Of a stretch of DNA of 64,000 bases, positions 12,002-60,722 are shown in pieces. The stretch comes from Euglena gracilis (Eukaryota), in assembly GCA_039621445.1 (NCBI GenBank), contig CP154954.1, forward strand, positions 47,161,847-47,225,846, given 5' to 3'. Position 1 is the first letter of the stretch, and every line of letters starts with the position of its first letter. A program made the position numbers and the translations under genes. The notes beneath the pieces are model-generated. The model had not been told where the DNA came from. It did no database searches and worked only from the letters and a program-made list of their open reading frames with translations.

Positions 12002-15000
12002 TTGGGAACAGAATCCGCTGGATTTTCCAGAAAAAAAATGTTAACAAGATTCTTTCTTTCAGAAAAATGTGATGTTTCCATTCATGCAGACCTCTGGGGA
12101 AACGCAGAGGACAATGGAATCAAATGCCTTTTTGTTTTCAATCAACCCACCCACCCAAAACCCTTGCAAAAAAAGTCTTCCGGCCAAGTGGACAGACAAT
12201 GCGGGACCATGGTGCATCCAATCTTTTTCTTTTGGTGGGGGAGGGTTCCAACAGGATTCTGGGTATTGGTGTCCGTACCGATTCATGCCACTGGGCCCAT
12301 ATGAAGGTTGAAAGCCGTCGTAGTTCTCAGCGGGCGGTGGGGGTGTGGGCAGACATTCACTTGGTGTATATCATAATGTCGCTGTGATGTGCAAGTGATA
12401 CACAAATTTCTTTGTGGTATTGCCTTTGGCCCTTCTTGTCTGTGTGTGTGGAGGTGGTCTTCCGAGTGAAAAATATGTCGAAACTGTGATCTTTGATATG
12501 CACTGGCCCCCCAAAAAATCAAAAAGACAATAAAAAAGGACAAAAAGTTTGGTATCAGGAACAATTGGGCCCAGATCATACCATTGCTTGGCGACCCCCC
12601 CCGGGGGGGTCACTTTCCACTCTGAAAAAACCAGTCAGTCACTTTACCCCCCCCCCCCCGGGGGGATCAGCCACTCTTCAGGAGCAATGAAATATTGCCA
12701 AAAAGTCTCAAAAAATCGAAAAAATTTCCGGCGCCTTTGGCGTCACTTTTTCATTTTCGGGCCTACCCCACCCCCCAGGGGGGGGGGGGGCTCTTGGCCA
12801 AAAACCAGTCAGTCACTCTGAAAAAACCAGTCAGTCACCCGCCGGGGTGGGGTAGGACAGGTGTTGAGCAATGGTGTGGCCCAGATCAAATCATTTCAGA
12901 GAAACTCAAGAAATTGCAGGGAACAAAAAACGTGTCGCATTTTTGTCACCTGCTTTTTTCGTGATACACATTTAATGCACTAAAATTTTGGTGATATATG
13001 TGATGCACAGTGATACACAATTTTTTTTGCTGATGCAATAAATGAACGTCTGGGTGGGGGTGGCGGGAGCATGGTGCCAAAAGACTCCGGCTCGGTAGGG
13101 TAGCCAGACACAGGACATTGCGAAACAGCCAAACAGGCAAGAAAGAAAAGAATTTGCAAAAGAAGTTTCGCACATGCCCTGGGAACTGTAATATGATGAG
13201 GGATCCTCAACTTGCGGTGGGGCACCTTCAAGCCTTGGTCTTCCCCTTGCAGGACGCGGCTTGCAAGCGGCAAAAGCAATCCAGATGCCCTTCCCAGAAT
13301 ATTTTTCATGACCTTGAGCTGTAGGATCCAGGCTTCTGAGATGAGGAAATCATTCTACGAACAGAAAATATGGGGTGAAGATGGACTGCGCAACCAGCAA
13401 CCTGAACCATCCGGTTTGGCCAAAGAAGCTTTTGGTGGAAAAAAAGTAAAATGTCGCCATTTGTGGGGAAGCGATTGAATTGTCACTGTCAATCACAAAT
13501 AAAACTTGGAAGCCACCACATTCTTGCTCTTTGTTTGGAAGAAGTTTCTTCTTGAATTTTTTTTAGAATTTTCTATCAAAATGGTGAAGCCTTCTGCAAA
13601 AGGTCAAAAGGCATTTACAGGAGCCTGGTTGGATCCATCACATATCCATGCAAAGCGACCAAAGCATGAACTGCACTTTCAACAGAATCCATCTTGATCT
13701 TTTGCAGACAGGTGCTTGCAGTTGATTCCTCATACAACCAGGAGAAAGGCAACCCACCCATTTCGAGAACCAAAGGTTTCTGTATAATTTTGATTGTTGT
13801 CATCTGCACCAAGGTTCCTTCAAGAGAAAGACCCCTGGTGCCCCCCCCACCCTGGCTGACCAGGGGAAGGTCCCAAGGGGGAGGGGAACAACCCACCCAC
13901 CCAGGGTGGCGCCCCCCCCCGGGGGGGGGGGGCGGGGACCCCCCCCAAAATCGGGCCCGTTAAAGGCAATTTTCAAAAACTTTCGGCGCTTTGCGCCGAA
14001 AAGGTATACCCAGCGCCTCCGGCGCGGGACCCTCCCCCCCCCCCGGGGGGGTCCGGCCCAGACCCACCCACCCACCCCTCCCCCCGGGGGGGGGGGGGGG
14101 GTCAGGTGACTTAAAAAGAAGCCGGGAGGGGAAGGGGGAGGAAACCACAAAAAAAGAAGTTTCAAGTCCAAGTGAGAGTCATGGCACAAAGTGGGCCACC
14201 ATACCCCACCATGTGCATCTGGCTGATAATTTTTCCGAATCATCATTTTGTTGGCACATCGGGGGACCCATTAAACTGTTTGAGTGCCCGAAGGGAATCA
14301 ATTAAAAGTCCCCAGGGGGGGGGATAAACCCCCACACCCCCCAAGAATGGGGGCCCCACTTATTCCATGTGTACCCAGCGAATGTGGTTGGACAATTAGG
14401 TGCTGAAGGATCCGACCAAAAAATCGGTGGAACACGATTTTTTCTAAAAAGGCTTGGAACGCCAGGGAGGGTGCCCAAAGGGCTTTGTGGACCCCGGGGT
14501 TCTCACCAGAGACAGGGTTTGGAGTTTTTCTTGGTTATTCGTGGAAAGCGTGGGAAAAAATATTTTGACCCCCCCCCGCATACACTCTGCCATTACGGGA
14601 GTCAGATGGGAGGTGGGGGGGTCGGGTCGACCCAGGCTTGGGAATGTCGGAGGAGGGGGGTGGGGGGACCCCATTCCAAAACCAGGGGGTACCACGTACC
14701 TCCTGTCTGCGGAGCTTCCCATACAACACTGACCCCCTATGACACCCACTCAAAGAAAATTCCCTTGGTGCCGAAGGAAAACTTTGACCAAAAATTCGGC
14801 GCCCCCGAAAATAAGGCCTGGGGGTGGGTTGGACTCCCCCACCACCCACAGGTTTGCGGGGATCCTTGTGCAGCTGTGGGTTGACCCGGCTGGCACCCGT
14901 AGCAAGGCAAAAAAAAAGCCCAAATCCAACCAGCCTGGTTTCCAGCCTGATTCTTGAGTGGAAAACCAAAAAAAATGGCCAAAAAAATGGCAACAAGTTA

Positions 15001-17273
15001 TTTTTGAAGTCTCTTTCCAAAAAATCCCACAAACTTTCGCTGCGGGAGCCAAATTGCTGCTCAACACACAGATCACTTGATTTGGGCTCGGTGTGTGCTG
15101 CTTCTGAGCACTTGCCTGCTTGTGGCCCTGGTGTTGTCTGTCTTGAACAGTTCACAACTTTGAACAGCACCATACTGCCAAAACAGGGAAGCCAAAGCCT
15201 CAGGATCCAAAGGAATGTTGCAAGATATGTGCAGCGTGTCGCACGGTGGGCGGATGTGATCGAAGTTCCTGCTCTCTGGCTTCCGGAAACGATGCATGTC
15301 AGAGTTGCTGAAATCTTGGGTAAGACCATCGTCCTCTGCTCCTGTTGACATCAAATAGGGGTGATGCAACCAGACTGATATTTTGGTGCTCTTTCTTTCC
15401 AACCGGCCTGCCCGAGTCAGGAATTTTCTTGCGGAATCTCCTGGGGGGAGAGGGGGGCCAGCTGGAAAAAGGTGCTGGCTGGACACCCCGGGGGGCTGGC
15501 AGCGGCACTCAGTGGGTACCCCACCCAAAAGCAGGCAAAAAAATCCAAGTCTGGCTGGGCCTGTTGGGTTGGAAAAAAAGGTGGGGTGGGCTCCCCTCCA
15601 GTTTTCACATTTTTTTGCAGTGACACCCCGGGGGTTTGTATCAAAAGCCATTCAAGTGATTGCATCGTTCCGCCACCAGAATGCGAGGAAAGGAAATTCC
15701 ACTCCTCGAAAGTTAGGGACTTGACTTGGAACAGAAATTGATCCAAAATGCTGACCAATCTCTGACAAAATTCGAAAACTTGGGGTGAATGAGGGAGTGG
15801 GATTTTACGCTTCAAATTTTGGTAAAACTCCAAGCCTGACTGCAGGCTAAAAGTTATGCTGCATGCCCAAGACCGATTCCCCACCACAATTCTCAATAAA
15901 ATTTGGTGAGGGTCGCAGAGCGACGGAAGGGTTGGCAGCTGATTGTGATAAAAACCGTCAGGAAAACGCTCATCACTGATCAATTGTTGCCAGAAAAAAA
16001 CCCGGAAACCCAGAATTGAGACCAGCCTGTGCGTGACCAGCTGACTTGGAGAATCTTTCCGATGAGAGGGCATCTGTTCAAGTTGGTGAGTGCCGACCAG
16101 GCTTGGCTGGAGTCCCGGACAATTGACAGCCATTCTCACCAGGTCAATCTATTCTCTTCTTATTTTCTTTCCCCCCTATCCTCTGTCTTTCCTACGCTTC
16201 CTGAACAGCTTTTTCACCTTCATGACATCTCCTGCTGTGCCAAATAAGTTGAACAGTATCTGTGGCGTTGCCCTTTCATCCACATTTTTAACCCACAAAA
16301 CACGTTGATAAGAAGTCGCTGGAGGAGCAGGATACAACTGTGCCTGCTGTTGCCACATTTGGCTGCCATCATCTTGCGGTTGTTGTGGTGGTGGTGGCTG
16401 ATAGGTCATGGTGCTGGATGTTCCGTAGGCGGGTTGCATTGGTGGAGGAGGAGCTGCTGGGGGAATTCCAGTGGAAGCCATGGGATAAGCTGGAGGTCCC
16501 AGGGCACCTGGCGGAGTTGAGAGCAAGGACGGTTGTCCCTGGTTCTCAACTGTGTAATCCTTTGCACACAACTTTGCATCAATGGAAGTTAGTCTTCAGC
16601 AGACGCCAACTTGCACTGTTTGATTTGAAAAAATAAAATGTATTCAGAAATCAAAAGGCTGTGAGTTGGCGTTTGACCGGGAGAATTGAATCTGCATGTG
16701 GCAAGATCCAGTAAAAATGTGTTTTCCATTGAACTGCTCTTTTGCGGTGGCAGCTTCTTGAACACTCTCCATCTCCACAAAGCCTTGAATTTGTCCATTC
16801 TTGGGTGATATTGCAACTTTCCGCACTCGTCCAGCCATGGAAAACACTTGGTACAAAGTGTCAACATCCACGGGATGAAGGAGCAGAGTGACCAGGACAA
16901 ATAGAATGTTGTTTGGAGGCGTTTCATGCAAATCAGTGTGCAGTGTCAGATTTTGCCTGTCCGAGTACACAACCTTTACGTGCTTCCCACGTACAATGGT
17001 GTTGCCTCCGGTGTTGTGCATGAATTTTTGGGCTGACTGTAGGGAAGCAAACTCGACGAAAGCCTCCTTCTTGTTCAACAGCTTCAGGATATTTGTGACA
17101 ACACCAAAAGGTGCACATGCAGCATTAATCTCGGAGTCAGTTGCATAGTCTGGTAGGTGGCGGAAGTAGAGTACCCGGCTTGGACTACTCATCAATCCGG
17201 ATTGCCCAAACCTATCGCCAGCCTCTGCAGTAGGTGGTCTTCTCACACCGCCAGGAACGTCATTCAGGAACAT
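12002..17273 (-). CDS. Polypyrimidine-tract-binding / hnRNP-L-like protein, 4 RRMs, about 559 aa, 9 exons
   Basis: Exons 17273-16679, 16594-16196, 16134-16033, 15365-15122, 13699-13631, 13323-13185, 13105-13056, 12344-12265, 12003-12002 sum to 1680 nt in frame. PTB-like motifs: PSRVLYFRHLP, PPNNILFV, GSCHMQIQFS, LTQDFSNSDMHRFRKPESRNFDHIRPPCDTLHIS, IKMDSVESAVHALVALHG. The intron 2 boundary is uncertain. Confidence 0.88.
12004..12264 (-). other. PTB intron 8, 261 nt, nonconventional, splits the stop codon
   Basis: accCAGaatcctgttgga / tccagcggattCTGttccc stem; the join reads caa t|aa. Confidence 0.72.
12345..13055 (-). other. PTB intron 7, 711 nt, nonconventional; decayed copy of the tgtatcac hAT-like element
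   Basis: CAGacgttcat / gtgaatgtCTG 11-bp stem; TSD relic cccccacc / cccacacc; both ends homologous to the elements at 20758 and 37447. Confidence 0.85.
12577..12878. mobile_element. MITE with 8-bp TSD nested in PTB intron 7
   Basis: TIR cataccattgct / agcaatggtgtg; TSD gcccagat at 12569-12576 and 12879-12886. Relatives (aaaaccagtcagt motif) near 7140-7240, 11240-11310 and 30650-30960. Confidence 0.85.
13106..13184 (-). other. PTB intron 6, 79 nt, nonconventional
   Basis: tccCAGggcatgtgcgaaac pairs with gtttcgcaatgtcCTGtgtct; joins in frame. Confidence 0.8.
13324..13630 (-). other. PTB intron 5, 307 nt, nonconventional with 7/8 TSD relic
   Basis: aacCAGgct / agcCTGgatcc; 8 nt before CAG = gatccaac, 8 nt after CTG = gatcctac; restores MDPTAQ..GKGIWIAFA. 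Confidence 0.82.
13700..15121 (-). other. PTB intron 4, 1422 nt, nonconventional, contains nested repeats
   Basis: aagCAGgcaagtgct / agcacctgtCTGcaaaa (11/12 paired); joining gives TRATIKMDSVESA (RRM4 RNP1 region). Confidence 0.82.
15366..16032 (-). other. PTB intron 3, 667 nt, nonconventional
   Basis: gcaCAGgctggt / atcagtCTGgttgc stem; joining gives WSHHPYLMSTGAEDDGLTQDF, which matches the PTB RRM3-RRM4 linker. Confidence 0.85.
16595..16678 (-). other. PTB intron 1, 84 nt, nonconventional/intermediate
   Basis: ggtCAAacgccaact pairs with agttggcgtCTGctgaa (11/12). A 1-nt slide gives GT...AAG and the same mRNA. Confidence 0.8.
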
Positions 17274-17376
17274 TCAGCGACCTTTCGCCTTCAAGGAAGA
17301 AGAAAAATCATTGAAAAAGGGTTGTAGTAATTCCTAATTCCCACACACAAAAGAACTTTTCTGTTCGAGACCAAAG

Positions 17377-17826
17377 ATGGCTGAGGAGCAAACTCCAGCG
17401 CCCGCAGAACATAAAGAGGGAACTGCGAACACCATCAGTGTTAGCTTGCAGCGATCTCCTGTGTTCTATGCTAACCTTACGAAGCGATTCCTTCATGGTT
17501 CTCCTTCTTTTTTTAAAGGACTGCAGACAATTTGTTTTGTTTTTTTAGGTGGTGAACTGGAAGTCAAGCTTACAGGTTTAGGTGATGCCACCACAACCGT
17601 TGTTGGTGCCTGTGAGATTCTCAAGAGACAAGAAGGGTTAGTCACGGTTTGCTTCGGAAAGGAATATTTACCACGTCAAAATTCCTCTTGCCTGTAGGTT
17701 ACAAAGGTTGAAACTTCGCTCTCTGAGCGTGGTCAAGCACGCTTGATGGTTGTTGTTACGAAGGGACCAAAGTTCGATGAGTTGGACAAGGACCCAGCGG
17801 AGAAGGGGGAGGCAAAGGCGGTATGA
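17377..17826 (+). CDS. Alba-domain DNA/RNA-binding protein, 115 aa, two 51-nt GT-AG introns
   Basis: Introns 17498-17548 and 17647-17697. Spliced protein NTISVSLQRSPVFYANLTKRFLHGGELEVKLTGLGDATTTVVGACEILKR..VTKVETS..ARLMVVVTKGPKFDEL is typical of eukaryotic Alba. Confidence 0.9.
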
Positions 17827-19412: not shown

Positions 19413-19574
19413 ACTGGGCTCAGCCACAATTTGTTTAAAAACGTGTTCTGTGTCAAGAACTGTGTTTGGGCCAAGAGTTAGGGGGAGCCCAGGGGCGGGG
19501 ACCGCGGCGCCGAAGGCGCCGCGGTCGCCCCTGGGCCCCCCTAAAACCTTGGCCCAAAACACTGTTCTTGTTTG

Positions 19575-20735
19575 AAAACGTGCCCAACCACAGATGCCCT
19601 CCCCTTTTTTTCCGCAGCCCTCCCACTGTGGCTAAACGCACGGCAAACTTTGTGAATGGTCTTTTGCCACCTCCCCCTAGGACGGAACTGTTCCTGGCTG
19701 CTCTCGCGGTATACCAGCAAGCTTGCTGTTGCTGCCAACTTTTTGGAGTTCGCCAAACTGTGTCAACATCGGCAAGCTTCTTATCCTGAGCTGGATGCTT
19801 TGTTGCCTGGACGGGATGGGAGCAAGGAATTTCTTAAGCCGGAGGGTACCCTACCCCCGGGGGGGGGGTCCAGCCAGCCAGCAGCTCAAATCCAGCCAGC
19901 AGCCCAAATTCGGGCTGGGAGCCCCCCCCCCCGGGGGTCGAGTGAAATAAAGTCGGGTCCAGCACGGCCGGAGGCCGGGCCAGCCGGCCGCAGGCCGACC
20001 AGCCAACTGGGCTATCCAGCTCACTTATCCCCGCATTTTCCCCCCTCATCACAGCCCCTCCATCGCAGCCCCCCAGCCTTGATCTAGCTCCACCCATCAA
20101 AATGTCGAAAATGGCAAAAATGTGCAAGAAAATTTTGTTTTTCCTCGACCCAGCCCAGCCCAGCCTGCTCCAGCCCCGGACCCCCCCCCCCCACCCCCAC
20201 CCCCCCCCCGCGGGCGGGAGCAGCCAGCAGCTCAAATCCAGCCAGCAGCCTTTTTGCCAGCCGGAGGCTGGACCCCCCCCCCCGGGGGGTCCTTAAGAAA
20301 TTCCCTGGATGGGAGCTGGAACCCACCCTGTTGTTCGATGAGGCAAGCGTCATTGAACAATGTGTGGCTCAACGTGCGCAGCAGTCGGGAACTTTGTTCG
20401 TTTCAGGGAATCGTTCGGCAACCTCTTTTCACACATACGTGAATGCCGTCGCTCGGGCATTCCGCAAAACAACTACCGAGGGAGTAGTGTTGCCTTCCTC
20501 AGAGCGCCAATTCCCCCATTTCAACGAGCTGTTTTCGCGTTCCCTGGAGCGCGAACGCGCGCGGAAGGCAGTGTCAACGGTGGTGTTGTTTGTGGTGTTG
20601 CCATTCCCAAAAATCCAAATTGTGTGGAGCGTGGTGTGTGACGCCTGCGGTTTGGCATATCATTTTCATTGCCAAGCTTTGCGGCGGCCACCAAAGTATG
20701 GCTCTTTTTTGTGTAAAGCGTGTCGTGTTCCGTGA
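19575..20735 (+). pseudogene. Degenerate coding relic ending in a PHD-like finger, probably TE-borne
   Basis: VVCDACGLAYHFHCQALRRPPKYGSFLCKAC at the end; frameshifts upstream; interrupted by the element at 19823-20307. Confidence 0.45.
19823..20307. mobile_element. MITE with 8-bp TSD (CAA...CTG ends)
   Basis: TIR caaggaatttcttaag / cttaagaaattccctg; TSD gatgggag at 19815-19822 and 20308-20315. Confidence 0.88.
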
Positions 20736-20757
20736 TGTCGTGTCAGAGTGCTCCAAG

Positions 20758-23521
20758 CATACCTCCATTTAGTATGTATCACCAAATTTTTTTTACGTAT
20801 CACATGTATCACGGCCTAAAAATTAATGTATCACATTTGTATCACCAAAAAATTTTTAATGTATCACATATGTATCACCAATAAAATTATAATGTATCAC
20901 ATATGTATCACCAAAATTTTTCATAAGAATTTCCTTTTTTACATCAAAATTTCTGTTCCGCTTTTCATCCTTGTTTCTTTGCCTCTCTGCAGACAAATGG
21001 AACATTTTTCTTGTGATAATGCTTTCGGCAATGTGTTACGACTCACCAATTCGGCAATTTTTTTTTCCAATTTGTAGTCGGGATTATAGTAATTACCTCC
21101 CCCCCCCCTGGGCGCTTGGCCCCCTCCTCCTTACATGCAAACTTGGCCCCCCTAAAGTTGCCTTTTGGCCCTTTGCACATGGCCGCCAAAATTCTTAACA
21201 TGCAAACTTGGCCTCCCTGAGGTTGACCCCATGGCTTTACCTTCAATCATGGCCCGGGTCAAGCGCCCGGGAGGGGGGGAGGTAAACCCTCCCCCCAAAT
21301 AACACCCCCCAAATAACACCCCCCCCAATGATACCCCCCACACGGGGTCTGACTTCGGCCACCGAATTAATACCCCCCAAATCTCGGGCCGACGACCCAG
21401 ATTTTGACCTGAAAAGTTGGGTAAAAATAGCAGTCTCTGATAACAAATTACGAAAAATTTCGATTTTTCTTGATCATCTCGCCTCCAAAAAAAATGCTAA
21501 ATTTTATGAGAAAGCACAAAAAATGACCCCAAAGGAGGTTTTGGGTGCTATTTTTTTTGGGACTTACGGGACTTCGAAAAATTTCGAAAATTTTTGGGAA
21601 ATAATACCCCTCCTCAAGTAATGCCCCCCCCCCCCTCGGGGGACTTCGGGCGAAAAAATAATACCCCGGGTATTATTTGGGGGGGGTTTACTCTTGGCAA
21701 TGGTTCAAGGCTGTGTTTATAGCAACATGGCTTTGGTCAAAGTCTGTGTTTCTAAACACAGACTTTGACGTGCCGAAGTCCGTGTTTAGAAACACAGACT
21801 TTGACCTAAGTCTGTGTTTCTAAACACGGACTCCGACCAAGAAAACTGTGTTCACAAATACTGTGAACACAGTTTTCTTGGTCGGAGTCCGTGTTTAGAA
21901 ACACAGACTTAGGTCAAAGTCTGTGTTTCTCGGAGTATTTGGACCCTGAAACATCCCAATGATGCAGAAATAAAGGACTTTGGGGGGGGTCAATTTTTGG
22001 GCTTTGGCGCCTTCGGAGCCAAGAGAAAATGGCCCCTTTGAGGGGGGGGGGAACAAATTTGCCAAAACGGCCATTGTGAGGGAGGGGACACTTGGGGGGG
22101 GGGGTCAATTTTTGGGCTTTGGCGCCTTCGGCGCCAAGGCCACTTGGGGGGGGGGGGACAAATTTGCCAAAACGGCCATTGTGAGGGAGGGGACACTTTG
22201 GGGGGGTTAATTTTTGGGCGCCAAGAGAAAATAGCCACTTTGAGGGGGGGGACAAATTTGCCAAAACGGCAGGGAGGGGACATTTTGGGGGGTCAATTTT
22301 TGGGCTTAGGCTCATTTGGCGCCAAGAGGAAATGACCATTTTGAGGGGGGGGCCAAATTTGCCAAAAATTTTGACCATTATGAGGGGGGCACTTTGAGGA
22401 GGGTGAGGGTCTTTTTTTCTGTCCCAAGTGGCCTAGAGGGTGGCTCCCCAAAAATATCACCATACAAGGTTAGGTTAGGTAACATCTGTGCTCATCAACT
22501 TTTGGGAGCCTACCAAAGAAGTCATGGATCGTGGGTGCAGCGCCCGGAGCATTCTCATCAACATTGCAAAGTGAAGCACGCAAAATGGGGTATGCAAAAG
22601 GAAGGAGACGATGTAATCTTGTGTCATTTCTTCACATATGTTCCCATGTTTAACGGTAATGTTACCACTATTTCGAAAGGATTCTACCACCCCCCCCCCC
22701 CCTTTATTGTCCCCCCCCCCTTTATTGTCCCTGGGCCCCGGCCGACGGGGGGTTTTTTTGGCCCGGCCAATGAAATTCCTTTGGTACCCCTTTATTGTCC
22801 CCCCCCCCTTTATTGTCCGGTCGGGCCTCCTGGGGGCAGGTCGGTGGGACAATAAAGGGGGGGGGGGGTGGTAGTTCGGAAGACCACAGACGGCGGCCAA
22901 AAGCTGCCCGGCGGACACATTTTCTTATTCTGAAACCGTGTTTGGGCCGATTTCGAGACTTTAAAAGTCTTAAATCTTCGCCCAAAACACGGTTTCAAAC
23001 AAGAACAGTGTTTTGGGCCAAGGTTTTAGGGGGGCCCAAGGCGCGGTCCCCGCCCCTGGGCTCCCCCTAACTCTTGGCCCAAACACAGTTCTTGACACAG
23101 AAAAGGTTTCCGGCGTCCCAGAGCTGTGCAGCGGATCCTAATTCAGCTTCGCTTTGTCCCAAAAATCTGTCGTCAGTCTGCCGTCCGTCGTCAAGGTTGA
23201 GAAACACAGACTTTGACCAAAGCCATGTTGCTTTATAAACACAGCCTTAAATAACTGCGTTTCGAAACGCAGACTCAGGTCAGAGTCTGCGTTTAAGACG
23301 CAGTTCTTGATATGGAGGAATTGTTGTCTCGGAATCCTGGCTTCCGCGTTTTGAAGGTTCCCTTTGGAAGGAGCGGCTGAGAAGTTGCTGACAAAAAAAG
23401 ACAAAAAAATTTGTGTATCACATGTGTATCACCAAATTTTTTTTAACGTATCACATATGTATCACCAAAATTAAATTAATGTATCACAGATACGTTGTGA
23501 CTCGCACTAAATGGCGGTCTG
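20758..23521. mobile_element. Non-autonomous hAT-like element (tgtatcac family) with nested insertions
   Basis: TIR catacctccatttagt / actaaatggcggtctg; TSD gctccaag at 20750-20757 and 23522-23529; subterminal tgtatcac arrays. Confidence 0.92.
22685..22873. mobile_element. TA-flanked MITE (Tc1/mariner/pogo type)
   Basis: TA-ccacccc..tttattgtccc / gggacaataaagggg..gtgg-TA; a relative lies at about 18607-18760. Confidence 0.75.
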
Positions 23522-25430: not shown

Positions 25431-26512
25431 TCTGATACGAAAACTGTGTCCAGAACGCCGGTTCGGGCGTGAAGCCGTGTTCTGGAACACGGCTTCACGC
25501 CCGAACCGGCGTTCTGGACACAGTTGTTGAAACCGTGGATTAGGGGCTCTGGCTTCATGCCCGAACCGGCGTTCAAGGAATAAAGGCCAATTTCGCCCTA
25601 AATACCCAGTTTCTGAACATTTTTGGGCATTTTTGGGATCCTTTGGGCTCATGGCCATGTCGATCGGCCGATTGAAGTTTTCATCCGTCTGATGCCAGGT
25701 TACCCATCAATCGAAAGGTTTTTTTTTCTTCAGAATTACGATTTGGAATTTTTTTTTGGTTGGACCACCCCTAGGTTTTTTCAGAATCACGGTTGGGAAA
25801 TTTTGGCTGGACCCCCCCAGATTTTTTCAGATTTGCAATGCCGAATTTTTGGTTGGACCCCGCTGGTTTTTTTTCCAGAATTATGGTTGGGATTTGATCC
25901 CCCCTTTTTTCAGAATTCCGGTTCAGAGATTTTGGCTGGGTTTCTTCACAAACACGGTTGAAAAAAAAATGGCTGGAGCCCCCCCCTGGGGTTTTTTCAG
26001 AAGTACGGTTGGGAAATTTTGGCTGGACCCCCCCTTCAAAATTGGTTGGACCCTGGGTTTTTCAGAATTATGGTTAGGAAATTTTAGCTCCCCTTGGGTT
26101 TTTTCAGAATTACCATTTTTGGACCCTTTTCGCAAATTCCAAAATCCACTGTTCACCTGCCATGTTGCCCCTTGATCGATAACCCTTCTCAAGGGTTTTA
26201 GATGGCCTTAGATTTCAGCCCTGCTGCATGATATTCTATTTCAGAAAATCCCCAGATTTGGCCAAATGGAAATTGTTGCACAAAATACCCCAATTTCTGG
26301 CAAATACCCCCCAAAAAGTGCTCAGATATGATTGCCTCATGTCTACAAACCATTTTGGACACTTTTTGGTACTTTTCATTTTCGGTCCCCAGGACGCCGT
26401 TTTCCCGCCCGAACCGGCGTTCTGGACACCGGTTCGGCGCAGAAATTTCTGCGCCGAACCGGCGTCCAGAACGCCGGTTCGGGCGTGAAGCCAGAGCCCC
26501 AATACACAGTTT
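25431..26512. mobile_element. Second copy of the 18442-19412 element family
   Basis: Colinear similarity including aaatccactgttcacctg and gatggccttagatttcagcc. Confidence 0.7.
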
Positions 26513-40090: not shown

Positions 40091-40222
40091 AACGGGCGCC
40101 TGAATGGAAATCAACCGACATAAACGGGCGCCTGAATGGAAATCGACCGACATAAACGGGCGCCTGAATGGAAATCGACTGACATAAACGGGCGCCTGAA
40201 TGGAAATCGACTGACATAAACG
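40091..40222 (+). repeat. 32-bp tandem repeat aacgggcgcctgaatggaaatcgaccgacata (4 copies)
   Basis: Head-to-tail copies with no spacers; a second array lies at 40927-41077. Confidence 0.9.
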
Positions 40223-40926
40223 GTTTCCGATGTCTTGGAAATCGACCGACCTTTTGTTTCCTTTTTTGAATGCCTTTTTGTTCGTTTTTGGGACATTGTC
40301 AGTTTCAGCCTGAAACCCGTTAATGTCGACCAACCTTTTGTCTCTTTTTTTTTCGGAATGCTTTTTTCTTCCATTTTAAAAGAAACAATCTCTATATCAA
40401 GAATTGCGTCTTAAACACAGACTCTGACATGAGTCTGTGTTTCGAAACGCAGACTCAGGCCGAATAACAGACTCAGCGTTTCGAAACACAGACTCAGGTC
40501 ACAGTCTGTTTTTTTTTAAGAAACACAGATTTTGACCAAAGCCATGTTGCTTGAACACAGCCTTGGCCCGAAATCCGATGATGTCAATAGAATTGCAATA
40601 CAGGCGTCGAGCCCAGAAAATAGGTTTAACATTGCCAAATCACTCCTCACCTGAAAGCTGTTCTTTCAGATGACCAGATGTTCAGGACAAACTTGCCGAA
40701 TGCTTTTTCTGAAGTTCCAGAAAATGATAATCTTAAGTACCATCCTTACGTCTCTTCCATCCAAAGTTCAGCCAGTGGTGATCACCTGACCATAAAATTT
40801 GTTTTTTGTCTGATCCATAACGCCTCCACAGCCCCATAGGACCAAAAATGTCGAAAAAAAGGGAAATCCAAAATGTCCAAAAAGCCACTAAAAATTCCCA
40901 ATCTGACCAGCAACGGATTTCAATGG

Positions 40927-51236: not shown

Positions 51237-52817
51237 AACCCTGACCCTAATCCTGACCATAACCCTATTCCTAAAAATAATGGAGTTCACCCGCACTTTG
51301 ACTTCCGCAATTGAGAACATGGTGTGGGAAAGATTTTGAAGGACGTGTAAAGTGTTCGTTTGAGAGCAGTGCCAGGCAACAGCAATTTTTTTTTCAAACG
51401 CGTGTGGGCGAAATTTCTGGAAAAATTTTACTTTTCTCAATTACACTTTCACCAAGCCTTCTGACCAAAAACCAACGGACGCACCAGAACAGCACATTGC
51501 TCTCAGAACTCGGCAATTGCACAGATCCCAACAATGTGCCACATCTCAAGGTAGCTTCCGTGGGCGCGGTTTCCGCAGGGGCCCCAGGAGCAGCCCTTCT
51601 GCGTGGTCCAGGCCAACCGCCAGGCCAGCACCGAGGGCCATTAGAGCCGCCACCTGGAGCAGCAAGTGTCGCTTGGTCAGATATGGCACGGCGGTTGCTA
51701 CGATGGCATAATAGGCGACAGCCCCGGACGTGCCCTGCGGCCATGTATCCCTGGGCTCTTGCGACCCACAAGCAAGTTTGGGTGTGCGTTCGGTTTTTCG
51801 CATGGCACCGTTTTGAAGTTTTTTCGCATGGTGTCATTTTTTTTGCAGTTTTTGCGGCAGCCAAAGCTTCGGCTGTGTGCTGCGTTTTGGTCCAGGACAT
51901 GCCCCATATTGTAGCCAATACAATACCCATCGTGCATTGGATTGCCCTTAAAACTGGCTTCAAAAAATATCTGCATCACAATTTACCATCTCGACACCCT
52001 CTCTCCGTGAGAAGCGGCCGTAGGCTGAAGAACTGGAGGTGTCAATGGTCGCCAGGGAGGAAGATTGGACATACGGACAAGAATTATTGTGGACAAGAAG
52101 TGCTGTACAAAAATTATGGTTCTGCACACCAAATTGGCACTTGCCGCTCAAACAGGAGATTGGCAACTCAAAACCAAGAACTGGCCACAAAACTGTCATT
52201 TGTCCCCAATTTGGGAATTTGTGCACTCAATGCCCAGACTTGGCACACCAAATTATGGATTTTCCCATCAAACTTTGGAACTGACAATGGGAAATAAGGC
52301 ATTTGCCGCCCAAAATTAGGAATTAGCAAACCGCATTAGGTTTGCAACCCAAATTTGGCATTTGTCCCAAAATTTAAGAGTTTGCATCCAAAATTAGGCA
52401 TTTGCTTCCCAAATTTTGTAGTTTGCACCTCAAATTAGGCATTTGCCTCTCGAAAATTTGGAGTTGGCCCACCAATTAGGCATTTGCTAATTTGGGGGCT
52501 AGGTGCGCCGCTCACGGGGGGGGGGGGTCCCAGACCCCCCCCGCACGGCCCCTGCTCGGCTTTTTTTGGACGCTGTTTTTTCAATTTCAATTTCAATTTC
52601 AAATTCAATTTTAACAAGGGTTTTTCTAAGAAAAGGGAAAAAACACCCACTAGGTTTTGCATATAAAATTTCTGAATACATCTCCATCATTTTTGGCAAC
52701 TTCTGGGTCATTTCTGCCAAAAAAAATCTTTCCACAAAATATGAAAAAGTCATAAATTTGCATTTTTTTTTTGCAGTTTTGGATGTTTTTGACCATTTTT
52801 TTGGCAGTTTTTGAACT

Positions 52818-53227
52818 TACCTCCCCCAACCTTGTCTAAGAACCGGAAAAGATGGGTAAGAACCCGGGGGGGGGGGGTGCTTATTTTGCCAAAATATGGG
52901 TAAGAACCAGGGGGGTGGTGCTTAGACAAGGGGGAAAATTTTGACTGCAAAAAAAATCCGGCACTTCGCGCCGAAAAGGAGAAAACTCCCCTTATTTTGA
53001 AAGTCCACTGTTGAACTTACACACATTTGGTTGCAGAAATCAACAATACCTCACCAAATCAGGTCTCAGAAGTTGCAGAAATTTCAAATTTTTTGAGAAA
53101 TTTCCCTTAAAAATGCACACAAAATAAACCTCCCCGTGACGATGACCTGTAAAAAGATGGGTAAGAACCGGGGGGGGGGGTGGTGCTTAGACAAGGGTGG
53201 TGCTTAGACAAGGGGGGGGGGGAGGTA
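52818..53227. mobile_element. TA-flanked MITE
   Basis: TA-cctcccccaaccttgtctaag / cttagacaagggggg..gagg-TA. Confidence 0.75.
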
Positions 53228-55329
53228 GTAGTATTCGAAGTATGGTTTGGGTGTTTCATAACGAGTTTTCTTCAACAAAACTTTGATGCTTTTTGGGGCG
53301 TTTTTTTTTATAGAAAAAAAGCACGTTGTTTTGGCTTTTTTTAAAAAAAACGCCAACTATGACCTCGACCCCCCTCCGCCCTCTGTGCCCAGCTTCCTCA
53401 TGAAAATTGATCAAAAATGGCCAAAAATGGCCAAAAATGACCACTTTTGGACCCGAAAATCACCGATTTTGGGCCGCGCGCCGCCCGCGCGGCCGCCCTC
53501 GGCCCCCCCCCCCCCCGCAGCCACCCTCAGCCCCCCCCCCCGCCGTGCCTAACCTCCATTGCCTAATGCAATCAGAATTGAACAATTAATGCAATGCAGA
53601 AATTGAACAAAATTGCGGAAACTTTCACACATCAAATCCCCCCGAAAAACCCAGGGGTTCATTGGCTGGGGGAAAAAAGGTGTTCACTAGATCCCCCCGT
53701 GGTCCCCTTGTGAGAGGGCTGGCCAGAGCTGGGTCAAACACGGTCCAGGAGAAAACCAAAAATCAGCAATGTATGTGAATGGCAGCAAGATTTTACTTGG
53801 CCCCCCGGGGGGGGGGCGAACAAAGTTTAAACATACAAATATAAATATAAAATCTACAAACATAAAAAGAAATATAAATCAACACACACATATGGCAGCA
53901 AGGTTTTACTTGCCCCCCGAGTAAAATCTCCATGGGGGGCAGCAGCCTCCGCGTCCGACTCCCCCCCCCCCTTTCGGTCCCGCAGCGGCCTGGATCCGCG
54001 ACGGATCCGGGCAAATCGGTTGGATCTGGGGAGATTTGGCACTTAATTCTGGGAATGGGGCTGCGGTTCGGATCGGCACGCTGAAAAATTGGTCTTTTGA
54101 GGACCCAGACAGGCCGGAAGTTAGGGTACCGTTTTGGGAAGAGTTTTAAAAGGAAGATTTTTAGGGACCCGCAATTTGAGCTGCTAATTTGAGCTGCTGG
54201 CCATTTTAAAAAATTGATTTCCACATCAAAGAAAGCATTGAAGATTTCTTTTGGCCACCAGGGCCCAACTTCATGCCAACCTCCCAAGTGGATTCACAGG
54301 TGACAACTTCCTTGGGGCACTGAATTCTCCTGACATGTCAGGGAGGTCTTCGGATGCTGCAGTGCAGGGGGCGCCCAGCTGGAGCAGCAGCACATCCCCA
54401 CGGCAACGTTCACGGGCAGGCTGCGGAGTTTGAGTTGGCCCAGGCGCTGGGCCCCCACCTTCCCCACCGCGTACACGGCGAACGCCCCGGCCGACAGCAA
54501 CGCCACAAAACGCAGCTCACGAGTGGTGGGGGCACTCGCGCAGTGAGCGGAGCATGGGGTGCAAAGAGGAGGAAGAGTGGGTGAGAATGCATAAATGATG
54601 GAAAGGAGAATCAAAAAATTGGGGGAATGCAAAAAAAAAAGTGTTCGAAAACAAAAAAAAAAAAAAAAGTGATGGCACCACATTTTTTTTTTGGCCCCAG
54701 GCACCCACCGGGGGAGGGGATTTGGCAGACCCACCCACCCTCCCCCCGCCCCCGGTCCAAACTTCCTGAAATCCTGAAAAAATCCCGGACCTTCTTGTAG
54801 TTGTCATTCCAACTGCTCAGAGGCCAATCCTCTTCCGCAAGCTCATGTCTTGGGGATTGCAGAGGCATCCACTTTCAAATGGAGCCTGTACCAGGGGGAA
54901 AAAACCCAAGACCGATATTTCGAAAAAAAAGATCCCTCAAATTCAATATTCTGCAAAAAAACTTCCCTGCAACAATTTGTTTCCTGTTTTTGATTTTTTA
55001 TTCACTGTGAATTTTTGTCGAGACTGTGTATGTCTGCCAAACCAAAAAGGAGGATGGTCTGATGTAGGCTTCGGCGAGTTAGGCGAGGTTGGTGGTTCGT
55101 TTTATTTCCAGAAGAAAAATCAGGTCACAAGGTGTGAGGCCCCACGACATCGTACCTTCGACCTCTTGGAAGGAGGAGGATGGGTATTCAAGGACCTTCC
55201 CTGAAAAAGAGCCAAAGAAACTTCTTTGGTTCCACTTGCGATGAGTTTGGCAACGTTTTTGGTGAATTCCGGGGATGGTACATTACTGTACCGTCCCCAG
55301 AATTCACCAAAAACGTTGATGACACCCAC

Positions 55330-55813
55330 CAGGGGGGGGGGGAAATGCGCTCGCCCGGCCTCGGAAAAAATGCGCAAAAATGCGCAAAAATGCGCAAAAA
55401 TGCGCAAAAAAATGCGCAAAAAATGCGCATTTTTGGAAAAAATGCGCAAAAATGTGCAAAATCCGAGAAAAAATGTGCAAAAATCACGAAAATGCAAAAA
55501 TTACCCAAAAACATGCAAAAATGGCACCAAATTTGAAGAAATTATGTAGAATAATGAGGAAAATGTACGTTTCAAAAAAAATCAAAAATTTCAAATTTTT
55601 GCAAAAAATTGCAAAAATGGTCAAAAAATGCGAAAATTTTGGAAAGTCACGAAAAAATGTGCCAAAAAGCAAAAAAATGTACTGAAAAAAACGAAAAAAT
55701 GCGCAAAAAATGCGAAAAAATGCGCAAAAATGCGCATTTTTGGAAAATTTGAAAAAATGCGCAAAAAATGCGCAAAAATGCGAAAAAATGCGAAACGCAT
55801 TCCCCCCCCCCTG
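55330..55813. mobile_element. Inverted copy of the tgcgca family, 7-bp TSD
   Basis: cacccac at 55323-55329 and 55814-55820; interior is the reverse complement of 23826-24253. A decayed copy lies at about 34655-35235. Confidence 0.82.
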
Positions 55814-56068
55814 CACCCACATCGAAATGCATTCAAAAAAGTGGACCCCCATATTAATCCACTGGGATTCGATAGGGGCCCAAAAGTTAAGCCGCCGGTG
55901 CATATCTCTGTTAACACAGCCAATTTACCCGACACATACTGTTTGTAATTCCTTTTAGAGATAGGGTTAGGAATACAATCGGCGTTCAGAAAAGAAACCA
56001 CAAAAGGGTTAGATCGAAGTTAGAAAGGTGGGCTGAAATCAGGCCCCTGGGTTCGGGTCTTGTTACTG

Positions 56069-56467
56069 GAACCCCCCCCAGGGGGTACCCCCCCCCAATA
56101 TAAAGCCCCCCCTGGGGTTTATTTTTGCTGCCCAAATATAAAGCCCCCCCCCCCTGACGTGGAGCCAGACGCTGGGGTCACTAAGGAAAATCTTTGGGTG
56201 GAAACAAAAAATTTTTCACCAGAAATGCTCCATTTTGGATAAGAATTGCACATTTTGTTTGCAAAAAATGGGAGGTACACAACGAAAATTTGGCATAAAA
56301 TTGGTATTTGGCCACAATTGAAGGCCACCGAAGGTCACAGGGGCCACCCGAAAAAGTTTGATTCCCCCCCTTAATATAAAGCCCCCCCAAATGTAAAGCC
56401 CCCTGGGGGTCTTGAAATCCCGCCCAAATATGAAGCCGGGGGAGCTTAATATTTGGGGGGGGGGTTC
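56069..56467. mobile_element. MITE related to the pogo element at 44124
   Basis: aatataaagccccc repeats; gggggtcttgaaatcccgcccaaatatg is the near reverse complement of about 44219-44248. Confidence 0.7.
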
Positions 56468-59400
56468 AACGCCGTTAATCGGGTTGAGTTTACTGGGATT
56501 TTACTGCAAAAAAAGTGTGGCTGGTTTGGGTGCTTGCAACTCCACGGAGTTTGAACCAGCCCAGAGGCATTCTTTTTGGTGGTTGATTTTGAAGAGTGGG
56601 TGAGTTCATGTCACTGGGCCTGGCACGTTTTCTTTTTGACCAGGTCAGGTCAGGCAAGCCCCCATCAGTCGGGTAGAACTAAAATTATATTGTTATTGGT
56701 ATTAATGTGGTTCTGGCTGGTTTGGGGGGGGGTGGATGGAGCATGCACCAAATATCCCCCCCCCCCAAATCAGACAGTCCTCAGTGTGATGCATCATCTT
56801 TTGGAGATGTTTGGACCCTGACGTAAGCTCCCCTGGCAACAAGATCAGGATTTAAATTCAGAGCAAATAGAAACACACGAAATAAACACCAAATTCGAGG
56901 TAAATACCCTTTAAAAAATGCCAAAAGATCTGACAAACAGAAACCTCATGTCAAGCAGGGGGAAAGAATCAGTGCCCATAAAAGCTGCAAACCCTAAATA
57001 AGACAATCACAAAAATGATCCCCATGGGTCTATTTTCAGAAACCCAAATGCACACAATGCCTTGTGTTCGGGCAAGGCAAGGCACCGGTCTCATTTTTTG
57101 GGGAGGGAAGAAAAGGCAAGAGTGGTTGTTGCTGTACTCCTTTCACTGCTCTGCAAGAATGCAGAAGGCTGAAAAGGTTCGCATCTCCCCCTGCACCCCT
57201 CTCGGGCTTCAACTGGTCACATTGTGTCACCGCTGGGGTTTCAGAAGCTACCGCATTTCACAGCGGAGTGGCCGGCCCCCAGCAGCCACTTGCCCCGCAC
57301 CTTGCGCTGGAAGCCCTGCATTTCCAGCAGGTTCTCGCGGGAGGACGCCTTGCGTTTCTTGATCCGCTGGTTGATGGGGGCAGGGAGCCTCGCCGCGGGG
57401 GCAAAGTGTATCGGAAAACCCGACGTCCCCTTGGCGTGTGTATCAGCAGTGTCCCGTTCCCGTTTCCGAATTGCAGCACAGGATTTCTCAACCGTGTGAG
57501 ATGGGCTGAGGTGCCCTGCTGTCGTAGAGAGCACAGAAAGGCGCGTTAAGTCAGCCACAACAGGCTGACTTAAGACAAGAGGGATGCTGACCCCAGGGAT
57601 GTATGGGAAATACTGAGGAGGGGGGTCGGACACCCTCCCGACACGGAGGGGGGGGGGAGAGGTTCGACCCCCCCTAACCTCGAAACAGTGATGAGGAGGG
57701 AATTTTTTGGCTCTGTGGGTCCACAAGGCTGAATACCAGCCCAAAAATTGTTTAAAGATCCCTGACTTTCTATTTGAAAATAAACCCCCAAAATGTTTGT
57801 TGTTTCGAATTTTTTTGACACCTTTTCCCATCGTGGAAACACCAAAATATCCAAACATGTGTGCAGTATGCATAAAAGGGAAAGGTACTTTTTCTGGAGT
57901 GCAATGCCGAAAGAGAATTTTTCACCTTTTTTGGAACCTGCCAAGCTCTGTCCCCTCCTGGGGGGTTCAGAACCGTATATTTCTTAAAGACCGGGGGAGG
58001 AGGGTGCCCCCCCACCCACCCAGGCCAGGGTACTCCCTCCCCCGGGGAAGGGGGATCAGGGGGGCCAACTCTTGGGGAGTCGATTTTGGGTACACTCCTT
58101 CAGGGGGTACCGGCTCGGCCCAACCCCTCCCCCTCCCCCACCCGGGGTCCAACCGTTAAAAAATCCCACGTCCGGACCCCCCACCTTATGCCCCGGGGGG
58201 GGGGGGGGGGTCAGGACCCCCCCCCACCACCACCCAACTCAAAACCAGAGGGCTTCCCATACATCTGGCCACCCCACAGTGCCACGCCGGCACTTGCGTG
58301 GCACCGCAGGGTGGGCATCCCCAGGGACACAGCCCAGGAAAGAGGCCGTTCCCCGCACTTTGGGGGTCTCCCTGAGCGTAGGTCCTCAGCGCCTTGTTGG
58401 CCTTCGGGTCCACGTGGCTGAGCACGTCCTGGGTCCTCTCCATCAACTCAGCGGGCGCCCCCCTCCCCCTGCGTCCCGCACAAAACCCCGCCCCGGTCCT
58501 CGCCGGCGATCTCTTCCGGTGCAGCCACATCGGCCACCCTGCGGCTGGCAGTCCGGGGGTGTGGACAAACAGAGAAAAAACACTGCACATCGCCACCCTG
58601 GAAGCTGTGACAAGCGCCAAAAGGGTTCAATGTCTGGCTCCACACAAACGACTGCCACACAGACAGGCACCTCAAGCACAATGTGGCGTTGGAAACAAAG
58701 GGTCCAAGGTGCCCAGCCTGAACCAGCCAACAAATGCCCAGCTGCAGACATTACACTCCAGGAATATCGTGCCCGGGAGGGGGGCGAGCGAGGTGCAGCG
58801 CCACCTGCGACTGCAGCCGCCGCTTCATTTGCTGGAGCTGCGCCTGGAGCTGCTGCGCCTTCGCCACCGCTGGCACGGCAGCCGGCGGTCTAGTCAGCCC
58901 GAACAGGCCCCCCCCCCCCCCCCCCGTGCCTATGTACCAGCCCCCCCCCCAGAGGACAGCTGGGGCAATGCTGGCGCATATGGTGGCCTGCACCAGGGAC
59001 CAAAGACGATACAGTTTCGGGGGGGGGGTAGCACCAGGTACCCGTGCCTGCCTGTCGCTTCCTGTTGCTGCCTGGGGGATGGGATGAGGAGCGCAGCACC
59101 CATCCTTGGGGCATTGGGGGTAAAAGGGAAAATGTGGGTCTCCTATTTGATGGAGAAAGAACGACTGAACAGACCAACCCCCATATGTTTGAAGAGAAAA
59201 TGCCCTCTTTGAGTTTGGGGACGGGCGAGCCTGAGCTCTCCGCAGCAGGGGGGGAACTGAACGGGAAAAAATGGTGTGGGAAAAAATCTGAACGAAATTT
59301 TGTTCATCCAATTTCCTCTAGTGAACGCCCAAAAAAATTATTCGGCGCTGCGCGCCGATATTTGAAATGTATTTTCAAATCACTTATATTGGTCATTCAA

Positions 59401-59651
59401 AAAAGATAGAATATATTCTTTGCTTAGCTTTGCAATTTGGAGTGAACTAACTTCAGGTGAAATCTAGAAATGGCTATATGTTGTTCATGTAACAACTCAT
59501 AAATCAAAAATGCATCTATCCTGCGATCTACCCCCGTGATGGGTCCCAACACCATTGAACACAGTTACTCGTTGGACCTCAGGAAAGCGGCGATGGAAGC
59601 AGGCCCCAAGACATTCCCATTTTGACAGAGGGTCTATGGCGAGCCTGTTGG

Positions 59652-60035
59652 TAGCACCCCCCAAAATAAGACCTGATCTTATTTTTTGGGGGTCATTTTG
59701 GATTTTCTTGACCGACCCGGGCCCCAAAAAATCCTCATTTTTTTGGGTTTCTAAAGCGCCTCAAAATTTTCCTTCGGAGCTCCGTGCCATGTGTTAATTG
59801 GTATAAATCAAAACTCGCCATGTTTTTTGTGTTTCAAAGTCGTCAAAAGTTTGCAGAATTTTAATCATTCTTGCACCAAAATCAGCGTTCTCCGTAATAT
59901 TCCAGGAATTTTTCATCGGGCTCAGGGCTTCGCGCCAAATTTGATGATAAATTTGGGGGGTCTTTATTTTGAATTTTTTGCTCAGTCAACCCGGGGGGGG
60001 TCTTAAATTTGGAGGTCTTAAATTTGGAGGGGGTA
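59652..60035. mobile_element. TA-flanked pogo-type MITE
   Basis: TA-gcaccccccaaaataagacc / ggtcttaaatttggagggg-TA. Confidence 0.65.
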
Positions 60036-60061
60036 TGGGCCGCCGTGGGCAACGGCTGGAA

Positions 60062-60722
60062 CGTGGCGGCGTCTGCCTTGACGCCCCGTGAGGCCTCCGC
60101 CAGGGCCTGCCCCGCCGCGCCGTACGCCTCCTGGCGGATGCGGGCCATGGTGTCGATGTGGTCCGCGTCCACCAGGCCCGCCGCGTAGTCCCCGGCAGGC
60201 AGGCACGAGATGGCAAAAAGAACGGCCTCGTGTACTGGGGGCTGCGGGTTCAGTGCGGAGGGAATCTTCTTGGCACGTTTGATGGGGCCAGCCAGGGCTG
60301 TATGGGAAGGCCTGGTGGGGGGGCCGGACCCCCCCCCCGAGGTGGGGGTCCACCACCCCCACCCACCGGCGCAAAGAAAATTTTGACCTAAAAATCGGCG
60401 CTCCCACAGAAATACGGGAAGGCCCGGTGGGTGGGGGTCGACGCCCGACCCACCACCCAGAGGGTTGCAGGGATTCCTCCACAGCCCTGGGGCCAGCATT
60501 GGTCTCGCGCTGCAATGTGGTGCACGAAAACATCACAGCACATCCATCCTGTCAGTGGTGGTTTCTCTTTGCTTTTTTTTGGGGGGGGGGTTGGAACGCT
60601 GGCGCCGGTCTGGACCACGGTGGCCTGCTGGAGGCTTCCGAGCAGCTGCTCCGCCTTGGCGAGGGCTGTGCTGGCGGTTTGGTGGGACTTGAGCAGCCGG
60701 GGTTGGGGGGATGACGCTTGAT
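60062..60722 (-). CDS. Internal exons of a multi-exon gene of unknown product
   Basis: Exons about 60722-60598, 60548-60493 and 60287-about 60062 are joined by a 49-nt GT-AG intron (60597-60549) and a 205-nt nonconventional intron (60492-60288): ALAKAEQLLGSLQQATVVQTGAS|DGCAVMFSCTTLQRETNAG|PIKRAKKIPSALN..DADHIDTMARIRQEAYG. Further GC3-rich exon-like blocks near 62020-61920, 61380-61215, 58875-58750, 58460-58270 and 57580-57240 are not fully joined. Confidence 0.65.
60293..60489. mobile_element. CAG...CTG MITE with perfect 8-bp TSD inside coding sequence
   Basis: TIR cagggctgt / acagccctg; TSD gggccagc at 60285-60292 and 60490-60497; the left end resembles the 9234 element (gggaaggcctggtggggggg). 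Confidence 0.9.

Follow-up and report, generated by a model that had tools for sequence, protein, structure and literature searches.

The nonconventional introns and the free DNA transposons in a 64,000-nucleotide stretch of the Euglena gracilis genome (contig CP154954.1 of assembly GCA_039621445.1, positions 47,161,847 to 47,225,846 of the forward strand; hereafter the window) appear to be built alike at their ends. The evidence supports a single architecture for both, consisting of CAG and CTG termini, a short terminal inverted repeat (TIR) and an 8-nt direct repeat in exact register with the ends. The best explanation, considered probable, is that the introns are transposon copies that inserted into transcribed exons and from the first were taken out as nonconventional introns. 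The nonconventional splicing code has been defined by mutagenesis and synthetic introns as CAG and CTG with spacers of 3 nt and 5 nt (PMC12501133), and these published spacers fit the present data in that they sum to the length of the 8-bp target-site duplication (TSD) seen here. Cutting 3 nt upstream of CAG, and again 5 nt downstream of CTG, therefore removes one element together with one TSD, and restores the pre-insertion mRNA in any phase.

The introns that can be placed against a known protein are those of a polypyrimidine tract-binding protein (PTB) gene, whose coding region occupies 12002-17273 on the minus strand, from the ATG to a TAA made by splicing. The gene was recognised by its match to P0001 (UniRef A0AA51UAN1, the 561-aa E. 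gracilis "Polypyrimidine tract-binding protein 1/2") and by the Pfam domains RRM_1, RRM_5 and RRM_8. Exon 1 (17273-16680) is 100% identical to P0001, and the window is therefore E. gracilis nuclear DNA; 554/561 residues are placed by exact matches on eight minus-strand exons running from 17273 to 12266. P0001 is probably transcriptome-derived, a connection suggested by its name, which matches the PTBP1/PTBP2 set that was assembled from RNA-seq and Iso-Seq and then deposited in 2023, as described in PMC10679874.

At six PTB junctions all donor/acceptor pairs within 12 nt that reproduce P0001 were enumerated, giving 6, 3, 3, 12, 3 and 6 compatible options (33 in total). Each of the six junctions has exactly one P0001-compatible cut with CAG (CAA once) at +4 to +6 and CTG at -8 to -6, while the chance expectation for such options among the 33 is 33/4096, or about 0.008. 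Six introns rest on these junctions, all on the minus strand and all CAG...CTG except where stated: J1 (16595-16678, 84 nt, CAA...CTG, with a 10/11 stem), J3 (15366-16032, 667 nt), J4 (13700-15121, 1422 nt), J5 (13324-13630, 307 nt, with the in-register repeat GATCCAAC/GATCCTAC), J6 (13106-13184, 79 nt) and J7 (12345-13055, 711 nt, with the repeat CCCCCACC/CCCACACC). Only J1 has a GT-AG alternative among the six enumerated junctions, reached by a 1-nt slide. The seventh intron, J8 (12004-12264, minus strand, 261 nt, CAG...CTG, with a perfect 8-bp stem), is placed by the stop codon, as its removal joins T to AA exactly where P0001 ends and the unspliced frame would continue. An earlier note on this DNA, made from the letters alone, had cut all seven PTB introns 3 nt before the CAG, which is CAA in one of them, and 5 nt after the CTG; these cuts fit the deposited protein, stop included. 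The seven introns interrupt the frame in phases 1, 1, 2, 2, 0, 2 and 1, so that all three phases are represented.

Two further introns are predicted, one in a pogo-like transposase frame and one formed by an element at 60293, both described below. Across the nine introns CAG stands at +4 to +6 in eight (CAA in J1) and CTG at -8 to -6 in all nine; the rule-based intron starts are ACC in J8, AGC in the pogo segment and CCC in the 60293 segment, none of them GT. A tendency towards a pyrimidine-purine junction, as in euglenid nonconventional introns, is seen in 8/9 and 7/9 of the introns here. When the 8 nt before CAG were compared with the 8 nt after CTG, the identities for J1, J3 to J8, the pogo segment and the 60293 segment were 3, 3, 2, 7, 2, 7, 1, 7 and 8 of 8. 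The four high scores (7, 7, 7 and 8) fall to 0-5 once the right flank is shifted by 1-3 nt, and the chance of an identity of at least 7/8 at one site is about 4 in 10,000. In four of the nine introns, then, a 7/8 or 8/8 repeat directly abuts CAG and CTG. The register scores bear out the graded series that had been proposed, from an intact duplication at 60293 through 7/8 copies at 13630, 13055 and 45659 to eroded ones in the rest. They likewise uphold the proposal that such splicing equals the loss of an element plus one TSD in any phase, given that 3 + 5 = 8, the exact register in 4/9 introns and the occurrence of phases 0, 1 and 2 among the PTB introns. Terminal complementarity was listed for six PTB introns and nine elements. 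In minimum free energy folds of six introns the CAG-CUG pairing is complete in three (J6, 60293 and J8), involves two of three bases in J1 (CAA), is partial in J5 and is absent from the pogo segment.

A separate peculiarity of the PTB gene lies between exons 2 and 3 (16118-16193, minus strand), where residues 333-339 of P0001 (DMALLEF) are encoded in no frame of the window. The pattern DMAL[LM]EF is present in 6/8 database relatives of P0001, the other two having failed the pattern match, and a GT-AG intron at 16118-16193 would yield KQWLSIVRD in place of DMALLEF. More than two copies are reported in the study that deposited PTBP1/PTBP2 (PMC10679874), and the gene in the window may therefore be an almost identical paralog, or an allele, that has suffered a lesion at this site. 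A metagenome scan with P0001 for orthologous PTB loci found no relative.

Outside the PTB exons lie several families of small DNA transposons that are non-autonomous, move by cut and paste and make 8-bp TSDs. Their sizes range from 200 to 2800 bp, their TIRs are about 9-16 bp long and their ends read 5'-CA(G)...(C)TG-3'. A scan for exact 8-mers at inverted-repeat termini recovered all five elements for which the earlier note had claimed CAG-type and CTG ends with exact 8-bp TSDs (9234, 19823, 20758, 37447 and 60293). The same scan added 7517-7952, 12577-12878 and 30570-30994, and a relaxed scan (TIR of at least 8/10, TSD of at least 7/8) added 35333-35651, for a total of nine elements with exact 8-bp TSDs; two more, at 10234-11109 and 40151-40325, have TSDs of 7/8. 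On the plus strand, the elements with exact duplications are 7517-7952 (TSD TTCCGAAC, perfect 9-bp TIR CATACATCT), 9234-9827 of family A (TSD CCTGTGGG, ends TAGGGCAGAACGGGAA / CAGGGCAGAACGGGAA), 12577-12878 of family C, which is nested in intron J7 (TSD GCCCAGAT, ends CATACCATTGCT / CACACCATTGCT), 19823-20307 (TSD GATGGGAG, ends CAAGGAATTTCTTAAG / CAGGGAATTTCTTAAG), the composite 2764-bp element of family B at 20758-23521 (TSD GCTCCAAG, ends CATACCTCCATTTAGT / CAGACCGCCATTTAGT), 30570-30994 of family C (TSD CAAGGGGG, ends CAGACAATTGCTTA / CATACAATTGCTTA), 35333-35651 (TSD CACCAAAA, ends CAGGCTTTTGCTT / CAGGCTCTTCTTT) and the 1999-bp element of family B at 37447-39445 (TSD TTGTTGAT, CAG...CTG at both ends). 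The element at 10234-11109 (plus strand) has the ends CAGGGG...CCCCTG and the imperfect duplication CTCCCACC/CTCCTACC. On the minus strand, a third copy of family A (42356-42828) keeps one end (CAGGGCAGAACGGGAA at 42356), and its other end was not found.

The length of the duplication was controlled with 18,684 inverted-repeat pairs (at least 9/10 bases matching, 30-3000 bp apart, not of low complexity). Among the 1,200 pairs with YA..TR ends, exact flank repeats of k = 5-12 nt numbered 0, 0, 1, 11, 0, 0, 1 and 0, with a chance expectation at k = 8 of 1200/65536, or 0.02. The 17,484 pairs with other ends gave 33, 16, 12, 4, 14, 7, 2 and 1, with no peak at 8. The eleven matches at k = 8 comprise seven clean elements, a doubtful one in a local repeat array (21757-21816) and three that arise from a repeated subterminal motif of one family (TGTATCAC|CAAATTT). 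In the elements at 9234, 12577, 19823, 20758 and 30570 (and 7517), the TSDs of which are perfect and the TIRs otherwise so, the mismatch between the two TIRs falls almost always at position 3 (CAG against CAT, CAA or CAC) or at position 1 (TAG); the way in which the ends are processed, or selection against splicing, could lie behind this pattern.

Relationships within these families connect introns with free copies. To family A (CAGGGC...GGGAAGGCCTGGTGG) belong the free copy at 9234, the copy at 42356-42828, which is 76.5% identical to 9344-9827 over 511 nt, and the exon-borne element at 60293, the first 60 nt of which are 78% identical to those of the 9234 element. A family A-related piece also lies inside PTB intron J4, where 14774-14863 is 74.5% like the interior of the 60293 element. 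Family B (CAKACCKCCATTTAGT) is represented by 20758 and 37447; PTB intron J7, which has the ends CAGACGTTCATTTA / CAGACATTCACTTG, is 72-80% like this family (23402-23470 and 39303-39394) in its subterminal part. A comparison of filled and empty sites for the two family B copies left the boundaries ambiguous. The termini of J5 (CAGGCTCCTG/CAGGCTTCTG) resemble the ends of the free element at 35333 (CAGGCTTTTG/CAGGCTCTTC), and J5 was recovered blind by the relaxed TIR/TSD scan. The introns whose termini resemble free families are thus two, J5 and J7. Family C (CAKACMATTGCTT) includes 30570 and 12577, plus fragments at 7142 and 11242, and the start of the pogo segment (CAGAATTATGCTTAA) is loosely similar to it by eye. 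Both family C fragments are preceded by CCGGAC (7134-7141 and 11234-11241); in these copies the end of the family lies further out, or else the two are inside another repeat. A 20-base pattern for further family A copies gave hits on four contigs of 64-69% G+C with unrelated flanks, which were taken as chance bacterial matches.

The key case of an element within a coding region is the family A element at 60293, which has a 197-bp core (60293-60489), a perfect 9-bp TIR and the exact duplication GGGCCAGC. Together with one copy of the TSD it forms a predicted nonconventional intron of 205 nt (60288-60492, minus strand), the removal of which opens a 154-aa minus-strand frame across the insertion. 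The host gene (51549-61365, minus strand) would encode a conserved, multi-exon membrane protein, predicted as such and of unassigned function. Its exons were located by tblastn with P0010 and P0011 at 61365-61105, 60202-59999, 58461-58375, 57387-57274 and 51719-51549 (E values from 4.8e-13 to 0.015). Both homologs are distant, and their alignments flank the insertion on both sides; the host gene is therefore real. A search for a transcript-derived protein of this gene, among relatives of similar or greater length, found none, the representative search having given only distant homologs. For the other introns of this 51.5-61.4 kb gene the CAG/CTG rule alone gave 0, 16 and 4 candidates at three exon pairs, with weak stems. 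An intron between ...QQATV and DGCAVMF... (about 60552-60610) is drawable as GT...AG, with CAG at +4 and CTG one base off the rule.

The second case is a putative intron or insertion of 103 nt (45659-45761, plus strand; CAG...CTG, repeat ATGACAGC/ATGGCAGC, 7/8) in a pogo-like DDE_1 frame. With the segment gone, ...LLVYD runs straight into SCNSHLTDE..., a stretch that looks like the second aspartate region of a pogo-type DDE transposase. An in-frame TGA stands at 45563-45565, and the pogo-like gene may be dead or may contain a further small intron. To judge from their sequences, both the 60293 and the pogo segment would be spliced from transcripts.

These observations suggest a sequence of events. 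Copies of a transposon class with CA..TG ends and 8-bp TSDs would land in transcribed exons, where they would be removed as nonconventional introns from the outset, so that the insertions would be neutral on arrival. An enzyme would read the TIR stem and measure outward by 3 nt and 5 nt. Young introns would keep a duplication of 8/8 or 7/8; in old ones only CAG, CTG and the adjoining stem would remain under selection, and the duplication would decay. The introns without a repeat may by this route share the transposon origin. A broader proposal holds that the euglenid noncanonical code is the footprint of one 8-bp-TSD DNA transposon class, its 3/5-nt ruler removing the element and one duplication so that insertions are silent on arrival; this falls just short of an even chance. 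A bolder extension would have the splicing nuclease itself related to the transposition machinery. The description of the splicing as "RNA-level transposon excision", which had been offered earlier, is an analogy and goes beyond the evidence. The code may be the fossil of a transposon end, or transposon ends may have been selected to fit the code, and the order of the two cannot be told from the window.

A number of observations weigh against a transposon origin of the introns. Flank identity is at chance level (1-3 of 8) in 5/9 introns. J5, J7 and 60293 are linked to free elements. Of the nine introns, 6/9 have no relative elsewhere in the 64 kb, a count that is weak evidence either way. For introns lacking a recognisable repeat or a relative in the window, the transposon origin is therefore an extrapolation. 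Moreover, one end differs from CAG/CTG (being TAG, CAT, CAA or CAC) in 7/9 elements with exact TSDs, and splicing was lost upon single substitutions in CAG or CTG in the knock-in assay reported in PMC12501133; most free copies would therefore not be spliceable as they stand. The relaxed scan is noisy, with 18 hits in register against 6-11 in shifted controls. Short direct repeats have been reported at 84.4% of all E. agilis introns, conventional ones included. The exon downstream of the 60293 cut begins with C, while the published code prefers a purine as the first base of the downstream exon, where a change of A to C gave an unstable transcript (PMC12501133). In the pogo-like frame, the DDE_1 match is below threshold (E = 0.0033, 17.5 bits against a 22-bit cut-off) and the TGA at 45563-45565 lies upstream of the 103-nt segment, which may be no more than an insertion that a dead transposon has received. 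The removal of an element plus one TSD restores the frame with or without splicing, so that at 60293 and in the pogo-like frame only the insertion is demonstrated and its splicing is a prediction.

The reading opposed to a transposon origin of the code is one of mimicry, in which the splicing code came first, transposons with matching ends, or ends that evolved to match, were tolerated in genes, and the consensus is a selected signal. This is rather unlikely, although several observations accord with it. Introns keep positions 1-2 and the stem while the TSD decays, as expected if splicing alone maintains them; CAG and CTG are functionally required (PMC12501133); and free copies vary at end position 3, so that the transposition machinery may not need CAG. 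Introner elements, which carry spliceosomal signals, offer a parallel. Against mimicry, 3 + 5 equals the TSD length exactly and the repeats are in perfect register, which is explained most simply if the transposon class shaped the ruler. The direct repeats could instead be scars of double-strand-break repair or of another form of intron gain, with the free CAG/CTG elements a coincidence. Break repair was suggested by the authors who found 8-nt direct repeats at a recently gained, strain-specific gapC intron of E. agilis (PMC4770533), but here the same 8-nt length, register and end bases are found at elements outside the exons of the three mapped genes and at one nested in an intron, and other members of the family of the exon-borne 60293 element lie elsewhere in the window; scars of repair are very unlikely to account for the data. 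Transfer in the reverse direction, whereby the free copies stem from introns whose circular RNAs, once excised, return to the genome by reverse transcription or reverse splicing, is most improbable. The release of nonconventional introns as full-length circles (cited in PMC11282704) speaks for it, but cut-and-paste DNA transposition is what TIRs with an invariant 8-bp TSD point to, as do composite elements that reach 2.8 kb, and the element ends inspected bear no poly(A) tail or other mark of a retro-copy.

If the introns are transposon copies, as preferred here, the superfamily to which the elements belong is a separate matter. The earlier note had described the consensus as a fossil hAT terminus; the shared end architecture and the 8-nt register stand, but the hAT label is unproven. 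Termini of CAG or TAG in combination with 8-bp TSDs are classically the mark of hAT, and the ends of Merlin, a superfamily with TSDs of 8-9 bp and a DDE_Tnp_IS1595 transposase, usually begin with GG. The hAT consensus for the start of the TIR, YARNG, fits family A (CAGGG/TAGGG) and 19823 (CAAGG/CAGGG), but not families B and C (CAGAC/CATAC), 7517 (CATAC) or 35333 (CAGGC). The hAT target preference nTnnnnAn (T at position 2, A at position 7) is matched by 7/16 half-sites in eight exact TSDs, which is not significant (p = 0.08). A search of the window for a transposase was negative: no hAT, Merlin or other DDE transposase was found at E<=0.001 in a Pfam scan of 149 of the 237 window open reading frames (ORFs) of at least 100 aa. 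Matches in that scan were to RVT_1 (two ORFs), RRM families, Alba and NicO, and the ORFs inside the two large elements gave no Pfam match; non-autonomous copies need not carry a transposase. Two Merlin families with 8-bp TSDs and near-perfect TIRs have been reported from E. gracilis (PMC8101967). It is an evenly balanced question whether the elements belong not to hAT but to another 8-bp-TSD superfamily such as Merlin, P or one as yet undescribed, and "hAT-like" is best regarded as a reasonable guess and not as a finding.

The origin and removal of euglenid non-GT-AG introns have been open for about 30 years. A MITE (miniature inverted-repeat transposable element) origin was proposed from inverted repeats (PMC3935182), on which the idea has so far rested alone, and is repeated in PMC6221363, PMC12501133 and PMC12621601; TSD-like repeats at nonconventional intron junctions are noted in a review (PMC11282704). 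No paper covered by the literature search equates the 3 + 5 nt with a TSD of 8 bp, reports free copies that end in this way or mentions hAT, the search having taken in neither supplements nor the 2021 J Mol Biol paper on circular intron RNAs. As far as the literature was searched, the equation of an intron with an element plus one TSD is thus not in print, while the MITE origin, the TSD-like repeats and the single 8-nt gapC repeat are already published. The point made here is quantitative: spacers of 3 and 5 nt sum to the length of the TSDs made by transposon families of which free copies, ending alike, lie in the window. From it one would expect in-register 8-nt identity to be in excess at young introns across the genome, introns and intergenic DNA to have families in common, and empty sites in other strains to carry the 8-mer once. 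If correct, Euglena would offer a second example, independent of the spliceosome, of introns being created by transposons on a genomic scale, and the broader footprint proposal, if true, would explain why nonconventional introns make up about 70% of all introns in a sister species.

Other features of the window include an open frame of 1376 codons (2133-6263, plus strand), without a Pfam match and in a region of strong AT skew (0.30). Palindromes of a C-run followed by a G-run (CCCCCCCGGGGGGG) recur inside most elements and long introns (e.g. 12598-12612, 13914-13932, 14035-14050 and 60330-60340) and may be a separate small repeat. Three inverted-repeat elements with ends of other kinds may represent further transposon classes: 6036-6368 (AAAACCGACAAGGG), with a perfect 14-bp TIR and a flanking palindrome (CCTCGAGG); 25456-26464 (CGCCGGTTCGGG), with flank repeats of 7 or 9 nt; and 30247-30503 (CACGGCGTGTCG), with flank repeats of 7 or 9. 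An ORF at 20088-20732 (plus strand), with a weak PHD-finger match (E = 0.001), overlaps the 19823 element, stops 25 nt short of the 2.8-kb family B element and may be one more interrupted gene. The reverse transcriptase matches reach E = 8e-21 at best, and Alba and NicO are matched by one ORF each. No Rfam family reached its gathering score.

Among the closest known systems are the euglenid nonconventional introns themselves (Milanowski et al. 2014, 2016; PNAS 2025 for the code), with which the introns described here share CAG at +4 to +6, CTG at -8 to -6, spacers of 3 and 5 nt, a terminal stem, variable borders and frequent direct repeats at the junctions. The accounts differ, as far as those sources were consulted, in that a MITE origin was there drawn from inverted repeats alone, whereas free families and their register are shown here, in one window. 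Introner elements of Micromonas and Aureococcus, reportedly described by Huff, Zilberman and Roy in 2016, are said to be DNA transposons that create introns on arrival. They are likewise said to resemble the present elements in that the TSD helps to define a splice boundary and the element is removed with one duplication; they differ in depending on the spliceosome and on GT-AG carried by the element, whereas the borders here are non-GT-AG and follow a stem-and-ruler code. With hAT elements and their MITEs the present families share the TSD of 8 bp, short TIRs that begin with CAG or TAG, the existence of non-autonomous derivatives and subterminal repeated motifs (TGTATCAC in family B), but no transposase was found in the window ORFs scanned and most families depart from the YARNG end. 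The splicing of Ds elements is imprecise, proceeding via cryptic spliceosomal sites, and in this differs from the scarless removal proposed here. In maize, Ds (hAT, Ac/Ds) is reported to be spliced out like an intron (Giroux et al. 1994, cited in PMC3935182). The Merlin families described from E. gracilis in PMC8101967 share the species and the 8-bp TSD, a likeness that rests on TSD length and not on TIR sequence.

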